Notes: generated by a model not told the origin, from the sequence alone. A DNA stretch of 64,000 nt from Holophagales bacterium (GCA_009837885.1 VXSP01000015.1:14065-78064), one strand, 5' to 3'. Shown: positions 22,595 to 49,640, counted from the stretch's first letter. Numbers and translations are program-made.

Positions 22595-23567
22595 GAATGT
22601 GCGCCGCAAGACCGGGTACGCCGCCGCCCCGGCCAACCGGGTGCTGTCGATTGGGTGCGCCGGCGTCCCCGCCGGCATCCGGCGCGAAGCGCCGGCCTCT
22701 GGAGGCGCTGCTCCGCCCAGCCACCCGACCCTCGAGCTGCTGCGCAAGCTCGCCTCTGTGCCCCAGGCGCTGGCCGGCCTCGTCGTGCTGGCGCTGATCG
22801 CCGCGGCGGCGGTGCTGGCGCCCTGGATCGTCCCCGTCGACGCCGAGGAGATGGACTTCGACAACCTGCTCTCGGGCCCGAGCGCCGCGCACTGGCTCGG
22901 CTCGGACCAGATGGGCCGCGACACGCTGGCCCGGCTGATCGTCGGCGCGCGGATCGCGCTGTCCGTCAGCCTTGGCGCCGTCGGCCTCGGCGTGTTGCTG
23001 GGAGTGCCTCTCGGCCTGCTGTCGGTCTACTTCCGCGGCCGCGTCGACGACGTGCTGATGCGGCTCATGGACGCGCTGGTCACGTTCCCCAGCCTGCTGA
23101 TCGCGGTCGGTCTGGCCGCCGCCCTCGGCGGCTCGCTCCGCACCGTGATCATCGCCATCGGCATCGCGAACGTGCCGTGGATGGCCAGGATCGTTCGCAG
23201 CCAGGGGCTCTCCATCCGCGAGCGGGACTTCGTCAAGGCCGCGGAGTCGCTCGGCCTCAGCCACCCGCGCATCATCCTGCGCCACATCCTGCCCAACTGC
23301 ATCGCCCCGGTCATCGTCCAGAGCACCCTCAGCATGGGCTACGCGGTGCTGACCGAAGCCGCCCTCGGCTTCGTCGGCGTCGGCATCCAGCCGCCCACGC
23401 CGACCTGGGGCAACATGCTCCAGCAGGCCTTCCCGATGCTCGAGCAGCAGCCGCTGCTTTCGATCGTCCCGGGCGTGGCGATCTTCCTGCTGGTGCTGTC
23501 GTTCAACTGCGTGGGGGACGCGCTGCGGGATCTGCTGGATCCGCGGCTGCGGGGGGTGATTCACTAA
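22587..23567 (+). CDS. ABC transporter permease (DppC/OppC-like); its 5' region contains a REP copy, so the true start may be the GTG near 22758
   Basis: 326 aa. A GTG start overlaps the dppB-like stop. The conserved core begins at ~LELLRKLASVPQALAGLVVLALIAAAAVLAPWIVPVD, and the EAA loop is FVKAAESLGLSHPRIILRHILPN. Residues 20-40 (GCAGVPAGIRREAPASGG) are encoded by a reverse-oriented REP. Confidence 0.8.
   Translation: MTRNVRRKTGYAAAPANRVLSIGCAGVPAGIRREAPASGGAAPPSHPTLELLRKLASVPQALAGLVVLALIAAAAVLAPWIVPVDAEEMDFDNLLSGPSAAHWLGSDQMGRDTLARLIVGARIALSVSLGAVGLGVLLGVPLGLLSVYFRGRVDDVLMRLMDALVTFPSLLIAVGLAAALGGSLRTVIIAIGIANVPWMARIVRSQGLSIRERDFVKAAESLGLSHPRIILRHILPNCIAPVIVQSTLSMGYAVLTEAALGFVGVGIQPPTPTWGNMLQQAFPMLEQQPLLSIVPGVAIFLLVLSFNCVGDALRDLLDPRLRGVIH
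22653..22706 (-). repeat. REP-like double-hairpin repeat (full-length copy, reverse orientation) inside the tracked dppC-like ORF
   Basis: The reverse complement reads GGCCGGCGCTTCGCGCCGGATGCCGGCGGGGACGCCGGCGCACCCAAT, with both stem-loops (CCGGCGC-TTC-GCGCCGG and TGCCGGCG-GGGA-CGCCGGCA). Confidence 0.8.
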
Positions 23568-35169: not shown

Positions 35170-38100
35170 CTAGTTGATGTAGATGAACTCGCTGGCCGCG
35201 AGGATGACGTGGGAGAGCCGGGTCCAGGCGTAGAGTTCGGCGTCCGCGGAGGCATGGTCGCCGCTTCGCGGCGCGTTCCCCTCGGAAGCCGGCGAGGACG
35301 CCGGCGCACCCAGTGTGCGGCCACCCAGTGTGCGGCCGCTTCCACGGGCGCACCCGGTGTCCGACGCGCAGCTCCGCATCTCGTCGAGGAAGGCGAGGCT
35401 GTCGGCGATCTCGATGTCGTCGGCCGGGCGCCCGTAGGCGCGGACGAAGGCGGTATCGATGCGATCCGCGGCGTCGGCGTCCTCGATCTCCAGAAGTTGC
35501 TTTGCGAAGCCGAGCGCCGCCTCCTGGACGAACGGGCTGTTCATCATCAGAAGCGCCTGCCGCGGCACGACCGTCTCGGATCGATCGCCGACCGAGTCGC
35601 TGGCGTCGCCGAAGTCGAAGCCGCCGAAGATCGGATAGACAGCGGTACGCACGATCGGCATGTAGATCGAACGCCGCGGCGCGTCGTAGATGTCGACCCG
35701 GTCGAGTGGGCCGTACTCGCCGAAGACGTATCCCCGGGCGTTGTACTCTTCCACCCGTCCACCGATCGTCAGGTCGAGCCGGCCGGCGAGCTGCAGCAGG
35801 GCGTCGCGAATCGGCTCGACCTCGAGGCGTCTCCGGTTGTTGCGCCAGAGGAGGCGGTTCTCCTCGTCGACGGCCGCGTTCGCCGCGTCGTAGTCGCTCG
35901 ACAACCGGTACGTGCTGGACAGCATGATGTCGCGGTGGAGCTTCTTGAGCGACCAGCCGCCCTCGACGAAGCGGCGTGTGAGCCAGTCGAGAAGCTCGGG
36001 ATGCGTGGGTTTGCTGCCGATCACGCCGAAGTTGCTCGGCGTGTCGACGATGCCGCGGCCGAAGTGCCAGTGCCAGACGCGGTTGACGATGACGCGCGCG
36101 GTGAGCGGGTGCTCGGGGTGGGTGATCCAGCGGGCGAGCTCGAGCCGTCCGCTCGTGTCGCCGGCGACTGGCGGCGGCGGCACCAGGTGGTCCGTGACCT
36201 TCAGGAAGCCGCGCGGCTCCGGTTCGTCGGCCAGGTTCAGGTGGCTGCCCCGGATGTGTACCGGCAGGTCGACGGCCGCGGTCTCGTCCACTGCCATGGC
36301 GTGGGGCGGCGCGGGGGGTGAGGCTTCCTCCAGGCGTTCGACTTCGGCGCGCAGCTCCGTGAGCTGCTCCAGGGCCTCCTGCGGGTAGAGCTTCTCCTCC
36401 TCTTCCTGGTCGAGGCAGAGGATGCAGAAGTAGCCGTCGTAGACCAGCCATCGCAGCTCCTCCTGCTCGCGCGGCAGCCTGAAGTCCGAGGGTGAGAGTT
36501 CGTCCTCGTCCTTGAGCCCGAGTCGCATGAGGTGCTCTTCCCAGGCGATCTCGATGGTCGCGAACAGGCTCGCGTACCGCCAGGCGACTTCCTCGAGCGT
36601 CTTCGGCGCCGGCCCGCGGACTAGGCTCCGGGTCAGAGGCGCCGTCAGCACCTTCTCCGAGGCGATGATCGCCCGCAGCTCCTCGGTCACCTGTTCGTAG
36701 CGATCAGGAGAGGCGGCGGCGTAGGCGTTCCAGATCACGAAGACGGTGCTCGGGCTCGGGGCGTCCCCTTCGACCGGCGGGCCCTCCCGGTACCGGTAGA
36801 AGGCCCTGACCCAGCGTTCAAGAACGGCCGGCTCCAGCCCCCTGTTCCCGGCGACGCGGGCGATGGCGAGCGAGCCCGCCGAAGGGGGCTTGGCTGCCCC
36901 AGCGTCCCCATGGGGAGACGAGCCCTCGGATGCGCGTGCTCGTACCGCCTCGTCGTTGCTCCAGCTCGGGTAGGCCTCCTCCGCGGCGAGCAGGTACTCG
37001 GCGAGGGCCGCGCGGCGGGGGCCACGCAGGACGTCGTTCTGCTCGCGGACCACCCCGTCGACCTTCTCCTGCGCCTCGGCGACCAGCCTCTGCGCCGCCT
37101 CGTACGCGGCGATCTCGTCTTCCGGGGCCAGTGGCCGCTCCAACCAGCGCATGCCGGCGGCGTCGCTCATCGTCTCGGTCGAGCGCAGGATGCCGGCCAT
37201 CGCGTAGTAGTCGGCGGTGGGGATCGGATCGAACTTGTGGTCGTGGCAGCGGGCGCAGCCGACCGGCAGGGCGAGAAAGGCGCGGCCCAGGGTGTTGACC
37301 TGCTCGTCGACGATGTCGATCAGCATCTTGTCGACGTCCTGCTCGGCGAGCACCTTGGGGCCCAGCATCAGAAAGCCGGTGGCGGTGATCTGCTCGAAGC
37401 GCTGCGCGTCGGTCTCCGCCGGCATCAGATCGCCGGCGATCTGCTCGCGGACGAAGCGGTTGAAGGGCTTGTCGCGGTTCAGGGAATCGACGACGTAGTC
37501 GCGGTAGCGGAAGGCGTTGGGGAACGCGATGTTCTCGTCCAGGCCGTTCGAGTCGGCGTAGCGGGCGACGTCGAGCCAGTGGCGGCCCCAGCGTTCGCCG
37601 TAGTGGGGCGATGCGAGCAGCCGATCGACGACCTTCGCGAAGGCATCCGGGCTCTCGTCGGCGAGGAAGTCCTCGATCTCCGCTTCCGACGGGGCCAGGC
37701 CGATCAGATCGAAGGTCGCGCGTCTCAGCAGCGTGCGCTTGTCGGCTGGCGCCACCGGCGCGAGGCCGCGTTCCTCGAGGCGCGAGAGGATGAAGCGATC
37801 GAGGTCACGGCTGACCCAGGCCTCGTTCTCGACTTCGGGCAGCGCGGGGTCTTCGACCCGCCGGAAGGCCCAGTGCTCGCGGCCCGGGCCGTAGTCGAAC
37901 GCCTCGGCGGCTCTCGTGGCGACCACCGTCTGCTCCCCGCCGGTACGCGGGTCGGGCGCGCCGCGGCGGATCCACTGCTCGAAGTCGGCGATGACGTGCG
38001 CCGCCAGCTTGCCGTCCGGCGGCATCTGGGTGAGGCCTTCGTAGTGGAGCGCCTCGATCATCAGGCTGTCCTCGGGCGACCCCGGGACGATCACGGCGCC

Positions 38101-38319
38101 GCTGTCGCCGCCGGCGCGCACGCCTTCCGCGTCGAGCAGGATCAGCCCGCCGCGGATCTTCGCGGGATCGCCGCCGTGACACTGGTAACAGCGCTCAGCC
38201 AGGACCGGCCGGATCTTCGACTCGAAGAACTCGAGGTCGGCGGGATCGATCTCCGACGCGCCGGCGACCGTTCCGACCGCCGCCAGCCAGGCTAGTAGGA
38301 AGGGCGCAGCGCGGATCAT
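35170..38319 (-). CDS. PSD1-type protein: Planctomycete cytochrome C (PSCyt1) plus DUF1549 and DUF1553 domains
   Basis: 1049 aa with a signal peptide. The haem site is CYQCHGG...GGLILLD...PGSPEDSLM (PSCyt1), and the DUF1553-type C-terminus ends ...AASEFIYIN. The C-terminal region contains an in-frame REP-derived insert (GRTLGGRTLGAPASSPASEG). Confidence 0.85.
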   Translation of the reverse strand: MIRAAPFLLAWLAAVGTVAGASEIDPADLEFFESKIRPVLAERCYQCHGGDPAKIRGGLILLDAEGVRAGGDSGAVIVPGSPEDSLMIEALHYEGLTQMPPDGKLAAHVIADFEQWIRRGAPDPRTGGEQTVVATRAAEAFDYGPGREHWAFRRVEDPALPEVENEAWVSRDLDRFILSRLEERGLAPVAPADKRTLLRRATFDLIGLAPSEAEIEDFLADESPDAFAKVVDRLLASPHYGERWGRHWLDVARYADSNGLDENIAFPNAFRYRDYVVDSLNRDKPFNRFVREQIAGDLMPAETDAQRFEQITATGFLMLGPKVLAEQDVDKMLIDIVDEQVNTLGRAFLALPVGCARCHDHKFDPIPTADYYAMAGILRSTETMSDAAGMRWLERPLAPEDEIAAYEAAQRLVAEAQEKVDGVVREQNDVLRGPRRAALAEYLLAAEEAYPSWSNDEAVRARASEGSSPHGDAGAAKPPSAGSLAIARVAGNRGLEPAVLERWVRAFYRYREGPPVEGDAPSPSTVFVIWNAYAAASPDRYEQVTEELRAIIASEKVLTAPLTRSLVRGPAPKTLEEVAWRYASLFATIEIAWEEHLMRLGLKDEDELSPSDFRLPREQEELRWLVYDGYFCILCLDQEEEEKLYPQEALEQLTELRAEVERLEEASPPAPPHAMAVDETAAVDLPVHIRGSHLNLADEPEPRGFLKVTDHLVPPPPVAGDTSGRLELARWITHPEHPLTARVIVNRVWHWHFGRGIVDTPSNFGVIGSKPTHPELLDWLTRRFVEGGWSLKKLHRDIMLSSTYRLSSDYDAANAAVDEENRLLWRNNRRRLEVEPIRDALLQLAGRLDLTIGGRVEEYNARGYVFGEYGPLDRVDIYDAPRRSIYMPIVRTAVYPIFGGFDFGDASDSVGDRSETVVPRQALLMMNSPFVQEAALGFAKQLLEIEDADAADRIDTAFVRAYGRPADDIEIADSLAFLDEMRSCASDTGCARGSGRTLGGRTLGAPASSPASEGNAPRSGDHASADAELYAWTRLSHVILAASEFIYIN
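35285..35340 (+). repeat. REP-like repeat with tandem duplication of its 3' arm, located in frame inside the PSD1 coding sequence
   Basis: GAAGCCGGCGAGGACGCCGGCGCACCCAGTGTGCGGCCACCCAGTGTGCGGCC. Translated on the minus strand within the PSD1 ORF it gives ...GRTLGGRTLGAPASSPAS... about 60 codons before the natural stop. Confidence 0.75.
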
Positions 38320-38370
38320 TGAGGACTCAGGATTGAACGGCGCAGTCTACCAAGCAGCCGGTCCCTGCTG

Positions 38371-38440
38371 GGTGCCGCTGCGGGATCTCGAGGCTCCACA
38401 CTGGGTGCGCCGGCGTCCCCGCCGGCTGCCGCCGGAGGCG
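38371..38440 (-). repeat. REP-like repeat (reverse orientation, with a partial second copy)
   Basis: CACACTGGGTGCGCCGGCGTCCCCGCCGGCTGCCGCCGG is the reverse complement of the core, and it is preceded by the degenerate half-copy CTGGGTGCCGCTG. It lies between the sulfatase stop (38488) and the PSD1 start (38319). Confidence 0.75.
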
Positions 38441-38487
38441 GCTTTGAAACGCGCCGGCCGTCAGGCCGGCTCCGCTTCGCGCCGCCC

Positions 38488-40311
38488 CTACTTTCTCCGC
38501 ACGTACACGTAGTAGGCGCTCGCGATGACTTCCCGCCCTTCTTCGAACCAGGTGTGCAGGGCCATGGGACCCTCGGGCAGTGTCACCGTGAAGGTGGCCT
38601 CCCTGTCGTCGCTGTCCACTCGCGTCGTCAGCCCCTCGAAGCCGTAGGGCCTCTTGTCGCCGATGTCGAGGTGATGGTGGTCGCTGATGAACAGGCGTGC
38701 CGAGGAAATCGGCAACGCCGTGCTGCCCTCGGGCGCCGATGCGAGCGGTACGTCGATTTCCCTGGGCCAGCGCCGCAGTGCGAACTCGTACTCGCCCGCT
38801 TCGGCCACGTCGAGCAGCCAGTACCCGGTCTTCCGGGTGCCGCGCCGAACCTGCGCCTGCTGATCGACGAAGACGTCGAGCCACTCGCAGCCGGTCAGCA
38901 TCATGGGGTTCTCGATGTCGTCGCCGATGACGATCCGCTGGGGCTCGTTGGCGGTCGCGGCCACTTCGTCCCACCACTCGTAGAGGTGGTCCCGCATCCT
39001 GGCGACCACTTCAGGGTGCCGGTCGATCACGTTCGTGGTCTGCAACGGATCGGATGCCAGGTCGTAGAGCTCGCGGTCTTCGAGCAGGCGCCAGTGCTTC
39101 CACAGGACCCCCGCGTGACTCCGGGTGAGGATCGACTGGGTGTAGGGCGAGGGGTAATTGAAGCCGGACGGCATCCGGCTGTAGTTGATGATCAGCATGC
39201 GGTCCTCGGGAACGCCGGCGTCGCCGCGCAGCACGGGCGCCAGACTCATGCCGTTGAAGTTCGCGGCTGCCGGCGTTTCGATGCCGGAGAGGTCCAGAAG
39301 CGTCGGCAGGACATCCTGAACCTGTGTCAGGCCCGTCACGTCCTGCGGGTCGGCCAGGTCGCCGTTCGGCCAACTGATGAAGAACGGCACGCGATGGCCG
39401 CCCTCCCACAACTCGGTCTTCATGCCGCGCATGCCGGCGTTGAAGTAGAGCGGGCCGTGGGTGCTGCCGTTGTCGGTCATGAAGATCACGATCGTGTTCT
39501 CCCGGAGCCCTTCCTCCTCGAGGAACTCGGCGAGCTTGCCCATGTTTGTGTCGATGTTGCGGACCATCCCCAGGTACCTGCTCAGCCTGGTCTTCAGCGC
39601 CGTGCTCATGTCGGCGAACTCGGGCCGGGCCAGCGCGGCCGCCAGCGCAGCTTCGTCCTCCTCCTTGGCGATCAGCGGACCGTGCGGCGTGTTCGGAGCG
39701 ATGTAGGTCAGGAAGGGCGTTCCGGACGCCACGGAACGCTTCATGAACTCGATTGCTTCGTCGAAGAAGACGTCGGTGCAGTACCCCTTGAACGCCTCCC
39801 GTTTGCCATTGCGAATGTAGGTGTCGTCGAAGTAGTCGTTGCCCCAGAAGTCGGGTACCGAGCCGATGTGGGAGGAGGGGAACCACACCGTTTCGTGGAA
39901 GCCGCGGTCCTCCGGCCGGAAGGGGTAGTTGTCGCCGAGGTGCCACTTGCCGAACACCCCGGTTCGGTAGCCGGCCTCCGCGAAGATGTCGGCCATCGTC
40001 GGGATCTCGGGCCGCAGCAGGGCGCGACCGCTGCTGACGTTGATCGCGCCATTCCGCGCGGCGTCCATGCCGGTCAGCAGTTGTCCGCGGGTTGGCGTGC
40101 ACATCGGCGCCACGTGAAAGTCGTCCAGGCGCACGCTCTCGCTTCGCAGGCGGTCGAGATGCGGTGTCTCGAGCACAGGGTTGCCGTGGGCGGACAGTTC
40201 GCCGTATCCCTGATCGTCCGTCATCACGAGGACGACGTTCGGCGGCTGGGCGAACGCGGCCGCGGTGAGCGCGAACAGCAGAACACCGGCAAGAGACGTT
40301 GCTAGCCTCAC
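38488..40311 (-). CDS. Sulfatase (N-acetylgalactosamine-6-sulfatase/arylsulfatase-like), secreted
   Basis: 607 aa with a signal peptide. The signature is PMCTPTRGQLLTGMDAARNG (C-x-P-x-R), with NVVLVMTDDQGYGEL. Confidence 0.9.
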   Translation of the reverse strand: MRLATSLAGVLLFALTAAAFAQPPNVVLVMTDDQGYGELSAHGNPVLETPHLDRLRSESVRLDDFHVAPMCTPTRGQLLTGMDAARNGAINVSSGRALLRPEIPTMADIFAEAGYRTGVFGKWHLGDNYPFRPEDRGFHETVWFPSSHIGSVPDFWGNDYFDDTYIRNGKREAFKGYCTDVFFDEAIEFMKRSVASGTPFLTYIAPNTPHGPLIAKEEDEAALAAALARPEFADMSTALKTRLSRYLGMVRNIDTNMGKLAEFLEEEGLRENTIVIFMTDNGSTHGPLYFNAGMRGMKTELWEGGHRVPFFISWPNGDLADPQDVTGLTQVQDVLPTLLDLSGIETPAAANFNGMSLAPVLRGDAGVPEDRMLIINYSRMPSGFNYPSPYTQSILTRSHAGVLWKHWRLLEDRELYDLASDPLQTTNVIDRHPEVVARMRDHLYEWWDEVAATANEPQRIVIGDDIENPMMLTGCEWLDVFVDQQAQVRRGTRKTGYWLLDVAEAGEYEFALRRWPREIDVPLASAPEGSTALPISSARLFISDHHHLDIGDKRPYGFEGLTTRVDSDDREATFTVTLPEGPMALHTWFEEGREVIASAYYVYVRRK

Positions 40312-44858: not shown

Positions 44859-46220
44859 TCAGCCGCTGGTTTCGGCAGCGGCCGCCTTGGCCGCTTCCCG
44901 CTGCTGGCGCCGGAACTCGCGAACCCGCTGCATCTGCTCCCTCAACTGCTCGGGCACGATGAAGGTGGGCATGTTCGTCTGCTGCGTCTTGTCGCTGAAC
45001 GTGTAGTGGATGAAGCCGACCATCATCTCGTCGGTCGTTGCCTCGCCCCAGGTCACGTTGGACGTCGGATCGGGGTTCGCCAGGTTGTCGGTTGAGTTGT
45101 CGAACTTCGCGTCGACGCGGATCGTCGTGCCGGCCGGGATCACTCTGGGCGCCGTCGGCGTGTAGGTGAGCTGCCAGTTGAAGTCGTAGTTCGGCACGTC
45201 GAGCAGGACTTCCTTGCGGCCGTCCGGGTACTCGGCCGTGAACGTCATCGACTTGCCCCGCAGGTGCATGTGGGGCGTGAAGTCGAAGAGCACCGCCTCG
45301 TGTTCGGTGGTGTACGACGACCAGGAGTGGTAGTCGCTCTCGCCCGCCGGGATGTTGAGCGTCGGATCGACCAGCCACAGCGTCTCCACCACGTTCTCGG
45401 GCTTCTCGTCGTGGAAGTAGAGGCCCATCGTCGTCTGGTCGGTGCCGCCGGTGCCCGGGCCCGGGGTCTTGTGGTAGTGCATCTGGAAGAACAGCGTGCT
45501 GTTCGGCGGCATGCGCATTCCGTGCCCTTCCGCGAACTGGAGCGGCGCGACGCCCGGACCCCAACCGCCGACGAAGGTGAGGTCCAGGGTTCCGGTCGTG
45601 CTCCGCACGCCCGCGATGGTGGCGTCGGGCGGCGCCAGGTAGGTCAACTGGTGATGTACCGCTTCGACGAATCCTGGGTGGATCTCGATCGCCCGGATCC
45701 AGCGCTCTTCGTCGACCGGGTTGTCCACCTGGAGCCACTCGTAGTGATCCTCGATGTCGTCTGAGACGTGGAACTCCGGCGCGGTGTAGATGACGTCCGG
45801 CTCACCCAGCTTCCAGTGGGAATCGAACGTGGGCGGCTCCGGCGCCTGCGAGAGGTCGCCGGCCGGTGCGCCTGCGGCGACCCAGTTGTTCAGCGTCTCG
45901 ATCTCGGCGTCGGTGAGGCTCGGGTCCTCCACGAACTCGCCGTGCTCCGGATTGGCGAACCACGGCGGCATGGTGCGGTCGCTCACCGCCCGGCGGATCG
46001 ACCTCGCCCAGGGGCGCGTCTCGTCGTAGGTCAGGAGCGACATCGGCGCGGTCTGTCCCGGCCGATGACAACTCGCGCAGTTCTCGTGGAGGATGGGCGC
46101 GATGTGATCCGCCCAGGTCACCTCGGCGGGATCGGCTGCGTTGTTGGCTGGCGGCGCCGCGACGGCGGCACCGGCGAGGAGCGCGAGACCGAGGACGAGG
46201 AAGGGAAGGCGGGACTTCAT
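44859..46220 (-). CDS. Secreted c-type cytochrome fused to a copper monooxygenase-like domain (paralog of 1584-3164)
   Basis: 453 aa from M59 of the tracked ORF, with an RBS AGGAGA. Signal peptide MKSRLPFLVLGLALLAGAAVA. CASCH haem motif, then ...MPPW; copper ligands HH (VHHQL), HMHLRGKSMT and NYDFNWQ. Confidence 0.65.
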   Translation of the reverse strand: MKSRLPFLVLGLALLAGAAVAAPPANNAADPAEVTWADHIAPILHENCASCHRPGQTAPMSLLTYDETRPWARSIRRAVSDRTMPPWFANPEHGEFVEDPSLTDAEIETLNNWVAAGAPAGDLSQAPEPPTFDSHWKLGEPDVIYTAPEFHVSDDIEDHYEWLQVDNPVDEERWIRAIEIHPGFVEAVHHQLTYLAPPDATIAGVRSTTGTLDLTFVGGWGPGVAPLQFAEGHGMRMPPNSTLFFQMHYHKTPGPGTGGTDQTTMGLYFHDEKPENVVETLWLVDPTLNIPAGESDYHSWSSYTTEHEAVLFDFTPHMHLRGKSMTFTAEYPDGRKEVLLDVPNYDFNWQLTYTPTAPRVIPAGTTIRVDAKFDNSTDNLANPDPTSNVTWGEATTDEMMVGFIHYTFSDKTQQTNMPTFIVPEQLREQMQRVREFRRQQREAAKAAAAETSG

Positions 46221-46280
46221 GGGGTTCTCCTTGGGCGGGTAGGACGCCTTGGTTGGGGCGAGTCTAGCGGCAGAGCGACC

Positions 46281-46400
46281 GGAGCCGGCGCTGCGCGCCG
46301 GATGCCGGCGGGAACCCGTGTGGCGCGGGCCCGCGCCACACGCGTCACAGTCCGTGCGCCCGTCATCGGGCGCACGGATGACACGCCGGCGCACCCAGTC
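46281..46400 (+). repeat. Composite REP-like element: a REP copy whose loop carries a ~70-bp insert with two further perfect palindromes
   Basis: GGAGCCGGCGCTGCGCGCCGGATGCCGGCGGG, then the insert AACCCGTGTGGCGCGGGCCCGCGCCACACGCGTCACAGTCCGTGCGCCCGTCATCGGGCGCACGGATGACA, then CGCCGGCGCACCCAGTCTG. The insert contains the palindromes GTGTGGCGCGGGCCCGCGCCACAC and TCCGTGCGCCC-GTCAT-CGGGCGCACGGA. Confidence 0.8.
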
Positions 46401-46415
46401 TGAGCGCGTGCCTCT

Positions 46416-47342
46416 TCAGTCGAAGGCGGTCAGAATCTCCTCGTCGATCTGCTGCCAGGCCTCCGGCCGGTTGCCGATGCCGCAGAGGACGATCTCCTCG
46501 GCGCCGGCCTCGACGTACTGGTGCAGCAGGTCCTGGACGTAGGAGGCGGTGCCCCAGCAGTACCAGGGCTGCCCCGGCGATCTGGCGGCTTCCTGGTCGC
46601 TCGCGAAGAGCCGGAAGGGCAGGCCGACCGTTCTCTTGATCTCCGCCGGGTCGCGGCCGGCGTCCTCGCAGTGGCGGTCGAGGACCTTCTGCTTGTGCCT
46701 GAAGACGTCGACCCCGGCCGGGTGCCAGAAGTCCAGGTTGCTGATGTCGCCGTAGCGGGCGCAGGTGCGGAGCGTTCGCTTCTCGCCGTTGCCGCCGATC
46801 AGGATCGGGATGTGGGCCGTCCGGGTTGCACGCGGCCGGGTCGAACCCGGCACGAGGGGCGCCTCGTCCAGCCTGTAGTGGTTCCCCTCGAAGCTGACCT
46901 TCTCGCCCTCTTCCGCGGTGAACAGGAGGCGGATGAGCTGAGCCGCTTCCTCCAGGCGGTCGGAGCGTTCGCGCAGGGTGGGGAAGTCCCAGCCGTAGGC
47001 CTGGTGCTCGCGCTCGAACCAGGCGGCGCCGATCCCCAGCTCCATGCGTCCGCCGCTGATGTGGTCGACGCTGGCGCAGATCTTCGCGAGCAGGGCCGGA
47101 TTGCGGTAGGTGACGCCGCAGGCGAGGGTGCCGAGGCGGACGCGTTTGGTCACGACCGCCGCGGCGGTGATCAGCGTCCACACCTCGAGGGCCGACAGGT
47201 GTTCGTCGTTGGGAGCGGCCGGGGGCAGAAAGTGGTCCGAGAACCAGAGGCTGCTCCAGGTGCCGTTCTCGATCGCCTGAACCGTGGCTTCGGTTTCCGA
47301 CCACGGCACGCGGTAACTGCTGAGCTGGGCGCCGAACTCCAT
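46416..47342 (-). CDS. LLM-class (luciferase-like) flavin/F420-dependent oxidoreductase
   Basis: 308 aa. Bacterial luciferase-like TIM-barrel motifs are present (LWFSDHF...; GRMELGIGAAWFEREH; IGGNGEKRTL). Confidence 0.85.
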   Translation of the reverse strand: MEFGAQLSSYRVPWSETEATVQAIENGTWSSLWFSDHFLPPAAPNDEHLSALEVWTLITAAAVVTKRVRLGTLACGVTYRNPALLAKICASVDHISGGRMELGIGAAWFEREHQAYGWDFPTLRERSDRLEEAAQLIRLLFTAEEGEKVSFEGNHYRLDEAPLVPGSTRPRATRTAHIPILIGGNGEKRTLRTCARYGDISNLDFWHPAGVDVFRHKQKVLDRHCEDAGRDPAEIKRTVGLPFRLFASDQEAARSPGQPWYCWGTASYVQDLLHQYVEAGAEEIVLCGIGNRPEAWQQIDEEILTAFD

Positions 47343-49588: not shown

Positions 49589-49640
49589 GCAGGCCGGCGC
49601 TTTGCGCCGGATGCCGGCGGATGACACGCCGGCGCACCCG
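49589..49640 (+). repeat. REP-like repeat variant (loop ATGACA) overlapping the start of the downstream serine hydrolase gene
   Basis: GCAGGCCGGCGCTTTGCGCCGGATGCCGGCGGATGACACGCCGGCGCACCCGGTGG. The ATG in the loop is the inferred start codon of the 49621-50880 gene. Confidence 0.75.

Follow-up and report, generated by a model that had tools for sequence, protein, structure and literature searches.

A luciferase-like monooxygenase gene and a gene for a secreted protein follow each other on the minus strand of the 64-kb stretch of DNA that was analysed as a whole (hereafter the window, ~67% GC), and the spacer between them holds an intergenic, non-coding element (Table 1). From 46285 to 46399 it consists of a 7-bp hairpin, SL1, a 2-nt linker (AT), a 7-bp stem, SL2 (GCCGGCG/CGCCGGC), and a tail, GCACCCAGT; the element size is 115-135 nt. 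SL2 closes a 73-nt loop with two perfect hairpins, in the order GGAACC, hairpin 1, CGTCACAG, hairpin 2 and TGACA. On the left, the module CGGCAGAGCGACCGGAG is a degenerate form of the family's left terminal repeat and spacer (consensus CGCGGCAGAGGGTCCGGAAG). On the right, CTGAGCGCG could be what is left, in degenerate form, of the right terminal repeat (consensus TTCTGCCGCG), or else host sequence, and the right boundary is uncertain.

A preliminary description of this DNA had reported left and right arms around an insert of ~70 bp. The insert is the 73-nt loop of SL2, and every sequence quoted in that description was found in its place. The 24-bp self-complementary palindrome, GTGTGGCGCGGGCCCGCGCCACAC, is indeed perfect (46318-46341). 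The second palindrome, given with GTCAT at its centre, is present as well (plus strand), but a 12-bp stem around a 4-nt loop, TCAT, describes it better. Folding, which had been suggested as a check, gives SL1 and a three-way junction on either strand, with energies as RNA of -85.7 kcal/mol (plus strand, z = -4.1) and -90.7 kcal/mol (minus strand, z = -4.6), and as DNA of -55.4 kcal/mol (z = -5.4). The focal sequence also occurs in a second assembly of the same organism, GCA_009842435.1, and is therefore no window-specific error.

Table 1. Features at the focal locus, the sister copy, and the modules and copies of the repeat family in the window
Feature	Position	Strand	Remarks
Secreted-protein gene	44859-46220	-	downstream; signal peptide, CxxCH haem motif, Cu2_monoox_C-like domain
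CTAG, left border	46264-46267	+	found in element-free orthologous spacers too
Left flank module CGGCAGAGCGACCGGAG	46268-46284	+	from stacked type A copies and terminal-inverted-repeat search
SL1, CCGGCGC-TGC-GCGCCGG	46285-46301	+	type A upstream module
SL2 5' arm, GCCGGCG	46304-46310	+	covaries with 3' arm across copies
73-nt loop, conserved two-hairpin core	46311-46383	+	from covariance-model match and alignments
Hairpin 1, 11-bp stem, loop GGCC	46317-46342	+	encloses 24-bp palindrome
Hairpin 2, TCCGTGCGCCCGTCATCGGGCGCACGGA, 12-bp stem, loop TCAT (4 nt)	46351-46378	+	
SL2 3' arm, CGCCGGC	46384-46390	+	
Tail GCACCCAGT, single-stranded, conserved	46391-46399	+	most constant motif of the whole family
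CTGAGCGCG	46400-46408	+	from comparison with L007 and type A consensus
Luciferase-like monooxygenase gene	46416-47342	-	co-oriented, upstream; stop codon 16 nt from element tail
Sister copy, SL1 and SL2	49593-49639	+	SL2 loop GATGACA (49620-49626)
Core copies in the window	1548, 22653(-), 26401, 27872, 33691, 35288, 38403(-), 44802, 46304, 49613, 59552		
Type A upstream module			SL1 as in focal copy
Type B upstream module			GCCGGCC-TGAC-GGCCGGC...GCCGCC-TCC-GGCGGC
Type C upstream module			CGCCGC-TTC-GCGGCG

The element lies 60-130 nt upstream of the ATG of the secreted CxxCH/Cu-monooxygenase-like protein, so that the earlier placement of the copy upstream of a secreted redox gene was correct. 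Read on the minus strand, it ends ~45-60 nt ahead of the ribosome-binding site (AAGGAG, 46227-46232) and the ATG (46220). The same element is equally the 3' flank of the luciferase-like gene, 16 nt past its stop codon. A scan of the focal region gave no sigma-70 promoter consensus, and no intrinsic terminator (GC-rich hairpin with a T/U run) was found on either strand of 46100-46600. By heuristic gene calls, the tail stands beside the stop codon of an opposite-strand gene, 3-50 nt away, in 24 of 33 long copies, and the focal copy shows this commonest orientation of the family. As a separate observation, the motif GCTAGACTCGCCCC (window 46264-46275, and the spacers of L006 and L007, two of the fetched loci, which are numbered with an L) is kept ~45 nt upstream of the ATG in all three lineages; it includes a -10-like TAnnnT hexamer, and the element lies directly upstream of it, at the position of a -35 box.

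In L007 and L008 (84% protein identity), the luciferase-like gene and the downstream gene are separated by an orthologous spacer of 73 nt without the element, and in L006 (89% protein identity) an unrelated small hairpin occupies this spacer instead. This comparison shows that the element reached the present lineage after its split from relatives at 84-89% protein identity, and that its landing site was a 73-110-nt spacer between two co-oriented genes, beside a CTAG. In relatives, ISL3-/IS5-type transposases and phage-type integrases adjoin the syntenic block (L007 1-3166, L009 6037-8284), and gene order near the focal genes is rearranged between lineages.

The focal copy belongs to a repeat family that is dense in the window. 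Its constant unit is GCCGGCG-GGGA-CGCCGGC-GCACCCAGTG (24-nt SL2 + GCACCCAGT), and the core module GCCGGCG-N4-CGCCGGCGCACCC has 11 copies in 64 kb, where ~0-1 would be expected by chance. The left part, GCCGGCGCTNNGCGCCGGATGCCGGCG, which comprises SL1 and the SL2 5' arm, occurs five times in the window, and the right junction, GGATGACACGCCGGCGCACCC, exactly twice (46376-46396 and 49619-49639), with none expected from shuffles in either case; the right junction is thus common to the focal copy and the copy placed at 49589, as had been claimed. The 24-bp palindrome and the 28-nt hairpin are each single in the window, even at 3 mismatches. The constant module is the 7-bp GC hairpin SL2 plus GCACCCAGT, which occurs behind upstream modules of types A, B and C or alone, some constant units carrying no upstream module. 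Across constant units the stem covaries and the tail is constant. A replication-strand bias was considered and rejected: 9 of the 11 window copies are on the G-rich strand, yet across loci orientation shows no association with local GC skew (40 agree and 32 disagree at an absolute skew > 0.02). The idea that elements always abut TAG stops was rejected too, as flanking stops mix TGA and TAG.

At window 35244-35361, a type C short unit with a duplicated 15-nt tail forms an in-frame 39-codon insertion in a PSCyt/PSD1-type gene (ORF 35170-38319, minus strand), at a spot (DEMRS/.../ADAELYAWT) where the L009 and L007 orthologs hold 5-18 nt. At 22595-22716, a type A copy directly follows a CTAG containing the stop codon of a DppB-like permease gene, and it lies within the 5' end of a DppC-like ORF; in the close relative L025 (2218-2227), 8 nt stand in its place.

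Outside the window, the exact 24-mer has one match in 185,579 species-representative genomes, in 'Acidobacteria bacterium COS3_bin_14' (L005). This is a different MAG and an unrelated locus, with 96 bp shared at 99% identity; the shared 96 bp are exactly SL2 and the long loop, and the upstream module in L005 is type B. To judge from the name of L005 and those of homologues, the window itself comes from an Acidobacteriota MAG. The composite (L005 4985-5125) lies in frame in a family-2 glycosyltransferase (GT2) ORF (L005:4306-6600), where it separates the DxD half of the first GT2 domain from the C-terminal half. A six-frame peptide query led to L010, from a JGI metagenome, which has a ~85% identical copy at a third unrelated locus. 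The same query of the insert matched one protein only (P0121), and gene callers therefore rarely translate the element. With a degenerate two-hairpin pattern, 39 more loci from marine sponges were found in the metagenome collection, many of them in LXNI (Sarcotragus foetidus), LXNJ (Petrosia ficiformis) and MKWU (Aplysina aerophoba), the sponge metagenomes of PMC5099237. The pattern fixed 26 positions, and conservation is informative only at the other positions and in nine bystander copies, which were found by anchor or covariance model. The covariance model, built from 39 copies, gave 52 strong matches (70-122 bits) in 474 kb, of which exactly one is in the window (46300-46400; 113 bits, E = 9e-27). 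Short copies score ~20 bits in this model, as end-to-end matches with the interior deleted.

These counts bear on the origin of the insert. Loop length in SL2 is bimodal: among the copies in ~474 kb sampled, the loop is 4 nt long in 66 (AGAA, GGGA, GGAA and others) and 73 nt long in 34, with only stragglers between, and the distinct long-form copies number ~40. The same 73-nt loop recurs in the same SL2 arms at ~40 distinct loci of other Acidobacteria MAGs and sponge metagenomes, its stems kept by compensatory changes, which bears out one suggestion of the preliminary description, a subfamily with a longer loop. The opposite outcome, an insert that is unique and not palindromic, did not materialise, since relatives are present at dozens of loci. 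As compared across these loci, the insert is no private event; it is a conserved module, integral to a subfamily whose copies spread as units. A one-off local event, such as a template-switch palindrome, or an assembly chimera without relatives would fit with stems that are perfect, with an exact 24-mer that is not found elsewhere in the window, and with a short-read assembly of the same sample that ends two contigs inside the insert, within the palindromes (L002 1-40 and L004 3330-3372, with end errors). Dozens of loci with the same module, from assemblies, samples and host sponges independent of one another, refute it, and its probability is next to nil.

Searches of other collections gave little. 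Rfam at the gathering score had no match in the window, and at E <= 10 it gave only noise of 13-16 bits in 46200-46480. The core REP had 0 matches in viral contigs, where the generic long-loop pattern had 2, both chance matches in coding DNA. In the literature, a full-text search for the tail motif gave unrelated matches only, and nothing relevant was found on MITEs in sponge Acidobacteria.

The long form is conserved as a structure. Among 41 distinct long copies, 98% of the cells in the three helices are standard pairs, and both sides have changed at 11 of 30 pairs, in 41 cells. None of 500 shuffles matched the observed pairing values, slid controls were 27-48% paired, and a MAFFT alignment gave the same covariation result. 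At the innermost pair of the outer stem, 26 copies have C-G and 12 have G-C; four pair types occur at the base of hairpin 1; and for one hairpin-2 pair the counts are 28 C-G, 8 U-A and 3 U-G. Two compensated pairs are found in the outer stem of L020, and three in the hairpins of the divergent copy L022:3103. The unpaired junction bases AGAACC, GAACCAG and TG are almost invariant, and the hairpin-1 tetraloop is hypervariable (1.4-1.8 bits of entropy). The length of that loop varies by 1 nt, so that no reading frame is conserved.

Compensatory changes in three helices, near-invariant junctions and a free hairpin-1 loop are also what would be seen if the module were primarily a selected structured RNA, that is, if the three-way junction were a cis-acting element (a 3'-UTR or intercistronic stabiliser, or a processing or protein-binding site) or a small RNA, maintained by selection locus by locus, and its spread were secondary. 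The folding z-scores of -4 to -5 and the orientation bias relative to the neighbour's stop codon, 24/33, are consistent with this. However, no Rfam family appears even at E <= 10, and mismatches of the G.U (G.T) and A.C types are balanced, 9 against 8, so that neither strand is favoured as RNA. Presence and absence vary at orthologous sites of close relatives, copies lie in frame within coding regions and in tandem arrays, and there is no terminator-like U tract. We therefore regard a selected RNA as a very improbable primary explanation. Junction lengths, compared by eye with the hammerhead core, do not fit a hammerhead ribozyme, and attC/integron, CRISPR and tRNA-like elements were rejected on mixed gene orientation, lack of spacers and lack of an Rfam match.

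In the short form, the loop (AGAA/GGGA) is identical to the opening four bases of its long counterpart, and nothing is left over on the other side. Arms of the form GCCGGCG go with ...GATGACAC cores and GCCGGCC arms with ...GATGGCAG cores; arm variants thus covary with core sub-lineages, and arm and core therefore travel together. The preliminary description had also proposed that a second small palindromic element targets the loop, as a nested insertion. In the form considered here, a ~70-nt core (GAACCC-hp1-GCGAACCAG-hp2-TGGCA) would be an independent mobile element that inserts site-specifically into the SL2 tetraloop in repeated independent hits. Such an element would explain why identical cores and junctions stand behind different modules, type A in the window and L010 and type B in L005, L021 and L024, and why short and long states differ at orthologous sites. 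It would also suit the five loci (L019, L023, L022:3103, L029:4416 and L022:8915) in which the core lacks recognisable SL2 arms and which make the core a separable module; the cores at L029:4416 and L022:8915 sit in another repeat context. Against it, the core has neither terminal inverted repeats nor a target duplication of its own, the short loop is identical with the start of the long one and leaves no remainder on the other side, and in the L019/L030 comparison arms and flanks have changed as well, which amounts to replacement and not to a clean insertion. At least 85% of core copies lie inside SL2, and the covariation of arms with core sub-lineages is as expected for joint propagation. 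Repeated nested insertion is for these reasons unlikely. The arm-less cores in L022 and L029 are divergent (L022 3103-3189, which equals L048 8222-8308; L029 4416-4505; L022 8915-9004); two of them lie within a larger repeat bounded by GCGCACCC ... GGGTGC, and they carry several compensated stem changes.

The sister copy at 49613 is probably an internal-deletion derivative of the long form, to judge from its sequence. A 66-bp loss between the CGG repeats at 46309-46311 and 46375-46377 of the long form would leave it, and a second such remnant, with the loop GATGACG, is present in L018. This derivation is the best explanation for the right junction that the 46304 and 49613 copies have in common. 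The loop of the 49613 copy also contains an ATG (49621-49623) that is the likely start codon of a beta-lactamase-family gene, and the loop and 3' arm together encode MTRRRT, the start and positive head of the signal peptide of that protein. In L006, the orthologous PhyH/beta-lactamase junction has a unit in the opposite orientation and the gene has its own N-terminus, MLVGLRRS. The supply of a start codon could explain the retention of the GATGACA loop variant.

Comparison between relatives shows that sites of the family turn over. Window copies 22653, 35288 and 38403 are missing from relatives at ~90% nucleotide identity. The type B copy at 38403 (window 38328-38491) stands between two GTAG in direct repeat, where L009 (15719-15738) has GTAG once; the stop codon of the upstream gene falls in the first of the two. 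It is the one copy found with a clean pattern resembling a target duplication. Site 44802 carries a different composite in L009, and the copy at 1548 is short where L015 has a long copy and a half unit. L030 and L019, with flanks 99% identical, carry a short and a long form respectively at the orthologous site, and L051 has one short unit more than L039. Clusters are head-to-tail, apart from a single tail-to-tail pair (L016 8323/8369). At L037 997-1127, L043 3563-3693 (which equals L016 8207-8337) and L043 2258-2367, three or four short SL2 units follow one another head-to-tail in arrays that repeat every 33 or 39 nt, and the tail motif GGCGCACCCAGTG is tandemly duplicated on its own at window 35299-35340, L037 4440-4463 and L043 776-840.

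Some type A copies (L017, L019, L038, L047 and L049) are enclosed in the form CTAG-CGCGGCAGA...TCTGCCGCG(N0-6)-CTAG, with terminal inverted repeats of 10-14 bp, the repeat of L038 being a perfect 14-bp one. Type B, type C and solo copies have no terminal inverted repeats; the focal copy has a CTAG at its left end alone, where the repeat is degenerate, and no clean target duplication. IS630 prefers CTAG, and in the sequence of their ends the CTAG-bounded copies resemble a TA/CTAG-targeting MITE. A search of the fetched loci found no RAYT/Y1 or IS630-type transposase near any copy, and Y1_Tnp is absent from the precomputed Pfam lists of these loci. A crude HUH...Y regular expression had 0 matches among all ORFs in 474 kb, which is a weak negative. 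As for a parent IS, the solitary CTAGCGCGGCAG site in L017 neighbours FG-GAP/TPR genes and no transposase; a parent IS630-family transposase may be bounded by GCGCGGCAGA ends.

On the grounds of site turnover, alternation of short and long forms, arrays and in-frame copies, we class the element as a dimorphic, mobile REP/MITE-like module, which carries either a short SL2 loop of 4 nt or a long two-hairpin core of ~73 nt that makes a three-way junction. We consider it likely that the focal feature belongs, as a long-form copy, to a family of modular, non-coding repeats in sponge-associated Acidobacteriota, and that its subfamily spreads as a unit. An enzyme acting in trans would copy the element by recognising its hairpin shape and conserved single-stranded tail, with a REP/RAYT-like logic; for the composites bounded by terminal inverted repeats, the alternative would be a TA/CTAG-targeting DDE transposase. 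This mobilising enzyme is purely inferred. Recombination or slippage between copies may then turn short forms into long ones and give rise to arrays. Another proposal is that the two-hairpin core, in which each hairpin follows GAACC, is a functional motif specific to sponge-symbiont Acidobacteriota, either the substrate that an undescribed single-strand (HUH-type) transposition or domesticated system recognises and cleaves, or a cis-acting RNA three-way junction under selection at the 3' ends of genes; the hypervariable tetraloop would then be its sole neutral part. We hold this proposal to be quite doubtful.

At the focal locus, the element of this mobile family has come between two co-oriented genes, and once inserted it is probably co-transcribed with them. 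The stable GC-rich junction might then be a 3'-end barrier or a processing site on the intercistronic RNA, and in this way would uncouple or modulate expression of the luciferase-like gene and of the secreted cytochrome c/Cu-monooxygenase-like gene. Such a regulatory effect of the focal element we infer by analogy with REP, ERIC and Correia elements (PMC2229807).

A feature that looks unique in one window proves to be a conserved, dispersed module. It belongs to a dense family of interspersed repeats of uncultured sponge-associated Acidobacteriota that is apparently defined here for the first time, there being no Rfam model and no literature match for the motif; the family seems undescribed, although as REP/MITE-like selfish DNA it belongs to a well-known kind. 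Short-read assemblies break at these repeats and MAGs are fragmented, so that counts taken from MAGs fall below the true copy numbers. Relatives at ~90% nucleotide identity differ in intergenic spacers that the repeats have remodelled; some copies are tolerated in frame within genes, and one probably provides a start codon together with the charged beginning of a signal peptide. Assembly breaks, spacer remodelling and in-frame copies therefore make the repeats relevant to MAG quality, to gene calling and to how symbiont genomes evolve. The three-way junction, strongly compensated, offers a ready starting point in the search for an enzyme or RNA-binding partner that recognises it.

Among known repeats, the family shares with REP, BIME and REPIN elements a short GC-rich hairpin with an adjacent conserved single-stranded motif in many copies (11 per 64 kb here), a mostly extragenic position at gene ends, a stem that compensates while the motif stays constant, and clustering. 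However, the motif here is 9-12 nt (ACTGGGTGC on the other strand), longer than GTAG; the units are mostly head-to-tail with a period of 33 or 39 nt, unlike the inverted doublets of REPINs and BIMEs; no RAYT gene is found in the sampled DNA; and some copies are intragenic. BOX elements of Streptococcus pneumoniae are modular, different boxes being combined and the middle module repeated variably. The present family is alike in its modular build, but the BOX modules are others and show no nested long/short dimorphism. The Rfam search gave no match of the element to a curated model of a known structured RNA, among them the hammerhead, twister and other small ribozymes and the omega/HEARO RNAs. 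The RPE repeats of Rickettsia and the YPAL repeats of Yersinia are tolerated in frame within protein-coding genes, where a part of a signal peptide may come from them (PMC2229807). In-frame copies of the present family stand at window 35244-35361, in the GT2 gene of L005 and at window 49621; unlike these other family members, the focal copy (46285-46399) is intergenic.

In its length of 115-135 nt, its lack of an ORF and its presence/absence polymorphism between relatives, the element is like bacterial MITEs (<300 bp). ERIC (IRU) sequences of enterobacteria are similar in being imperfect palindromes with shorter and longer variants. Wilson and Sharp, in 2006, reportedly described both shorter ERIC variants with an internal deletion and longer ones with an insert of ~70 bp at fixed internal sites. 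ERIC has no sequence relation to the present family, its insert is not known as a covarying junction, and the density here is far higher. ERIC elements are co-transcribed, and their effect on mRNA stability depends on orientation (PMC2229807). The Correia elements (NEMIS) of Neisseria, IS630-type MITEs, are likewise small non-coding repeats near genes in two sizes that differ by an internal block, with terminal inverted repeats beside TA and with filled and empty sites between relatives; their transcribed hairpin acts on neighbouring mRNAs (RNase III). Their sizes are ~107 and 155 bp, with a 50-bp internal sequence, so that both dimorphic MITEs and effects at the RNA level have precedent (PMC2229807). 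The family described here differs in that the extra block is a covarying two-hairpin three-way junction nested in the loop of the terminal hairpin, in that only a subset of copies has terminal inverted repeats, and in that the constant unit, the hairpin with GCACCCAGT, also spreads alone and in head-to-tail arrays. There is no sequence similarity, and the host is an acidobacteriotal one. The closest analogues of the present family are the dimorphic Correia (107/155 bp) and ERIC elements.
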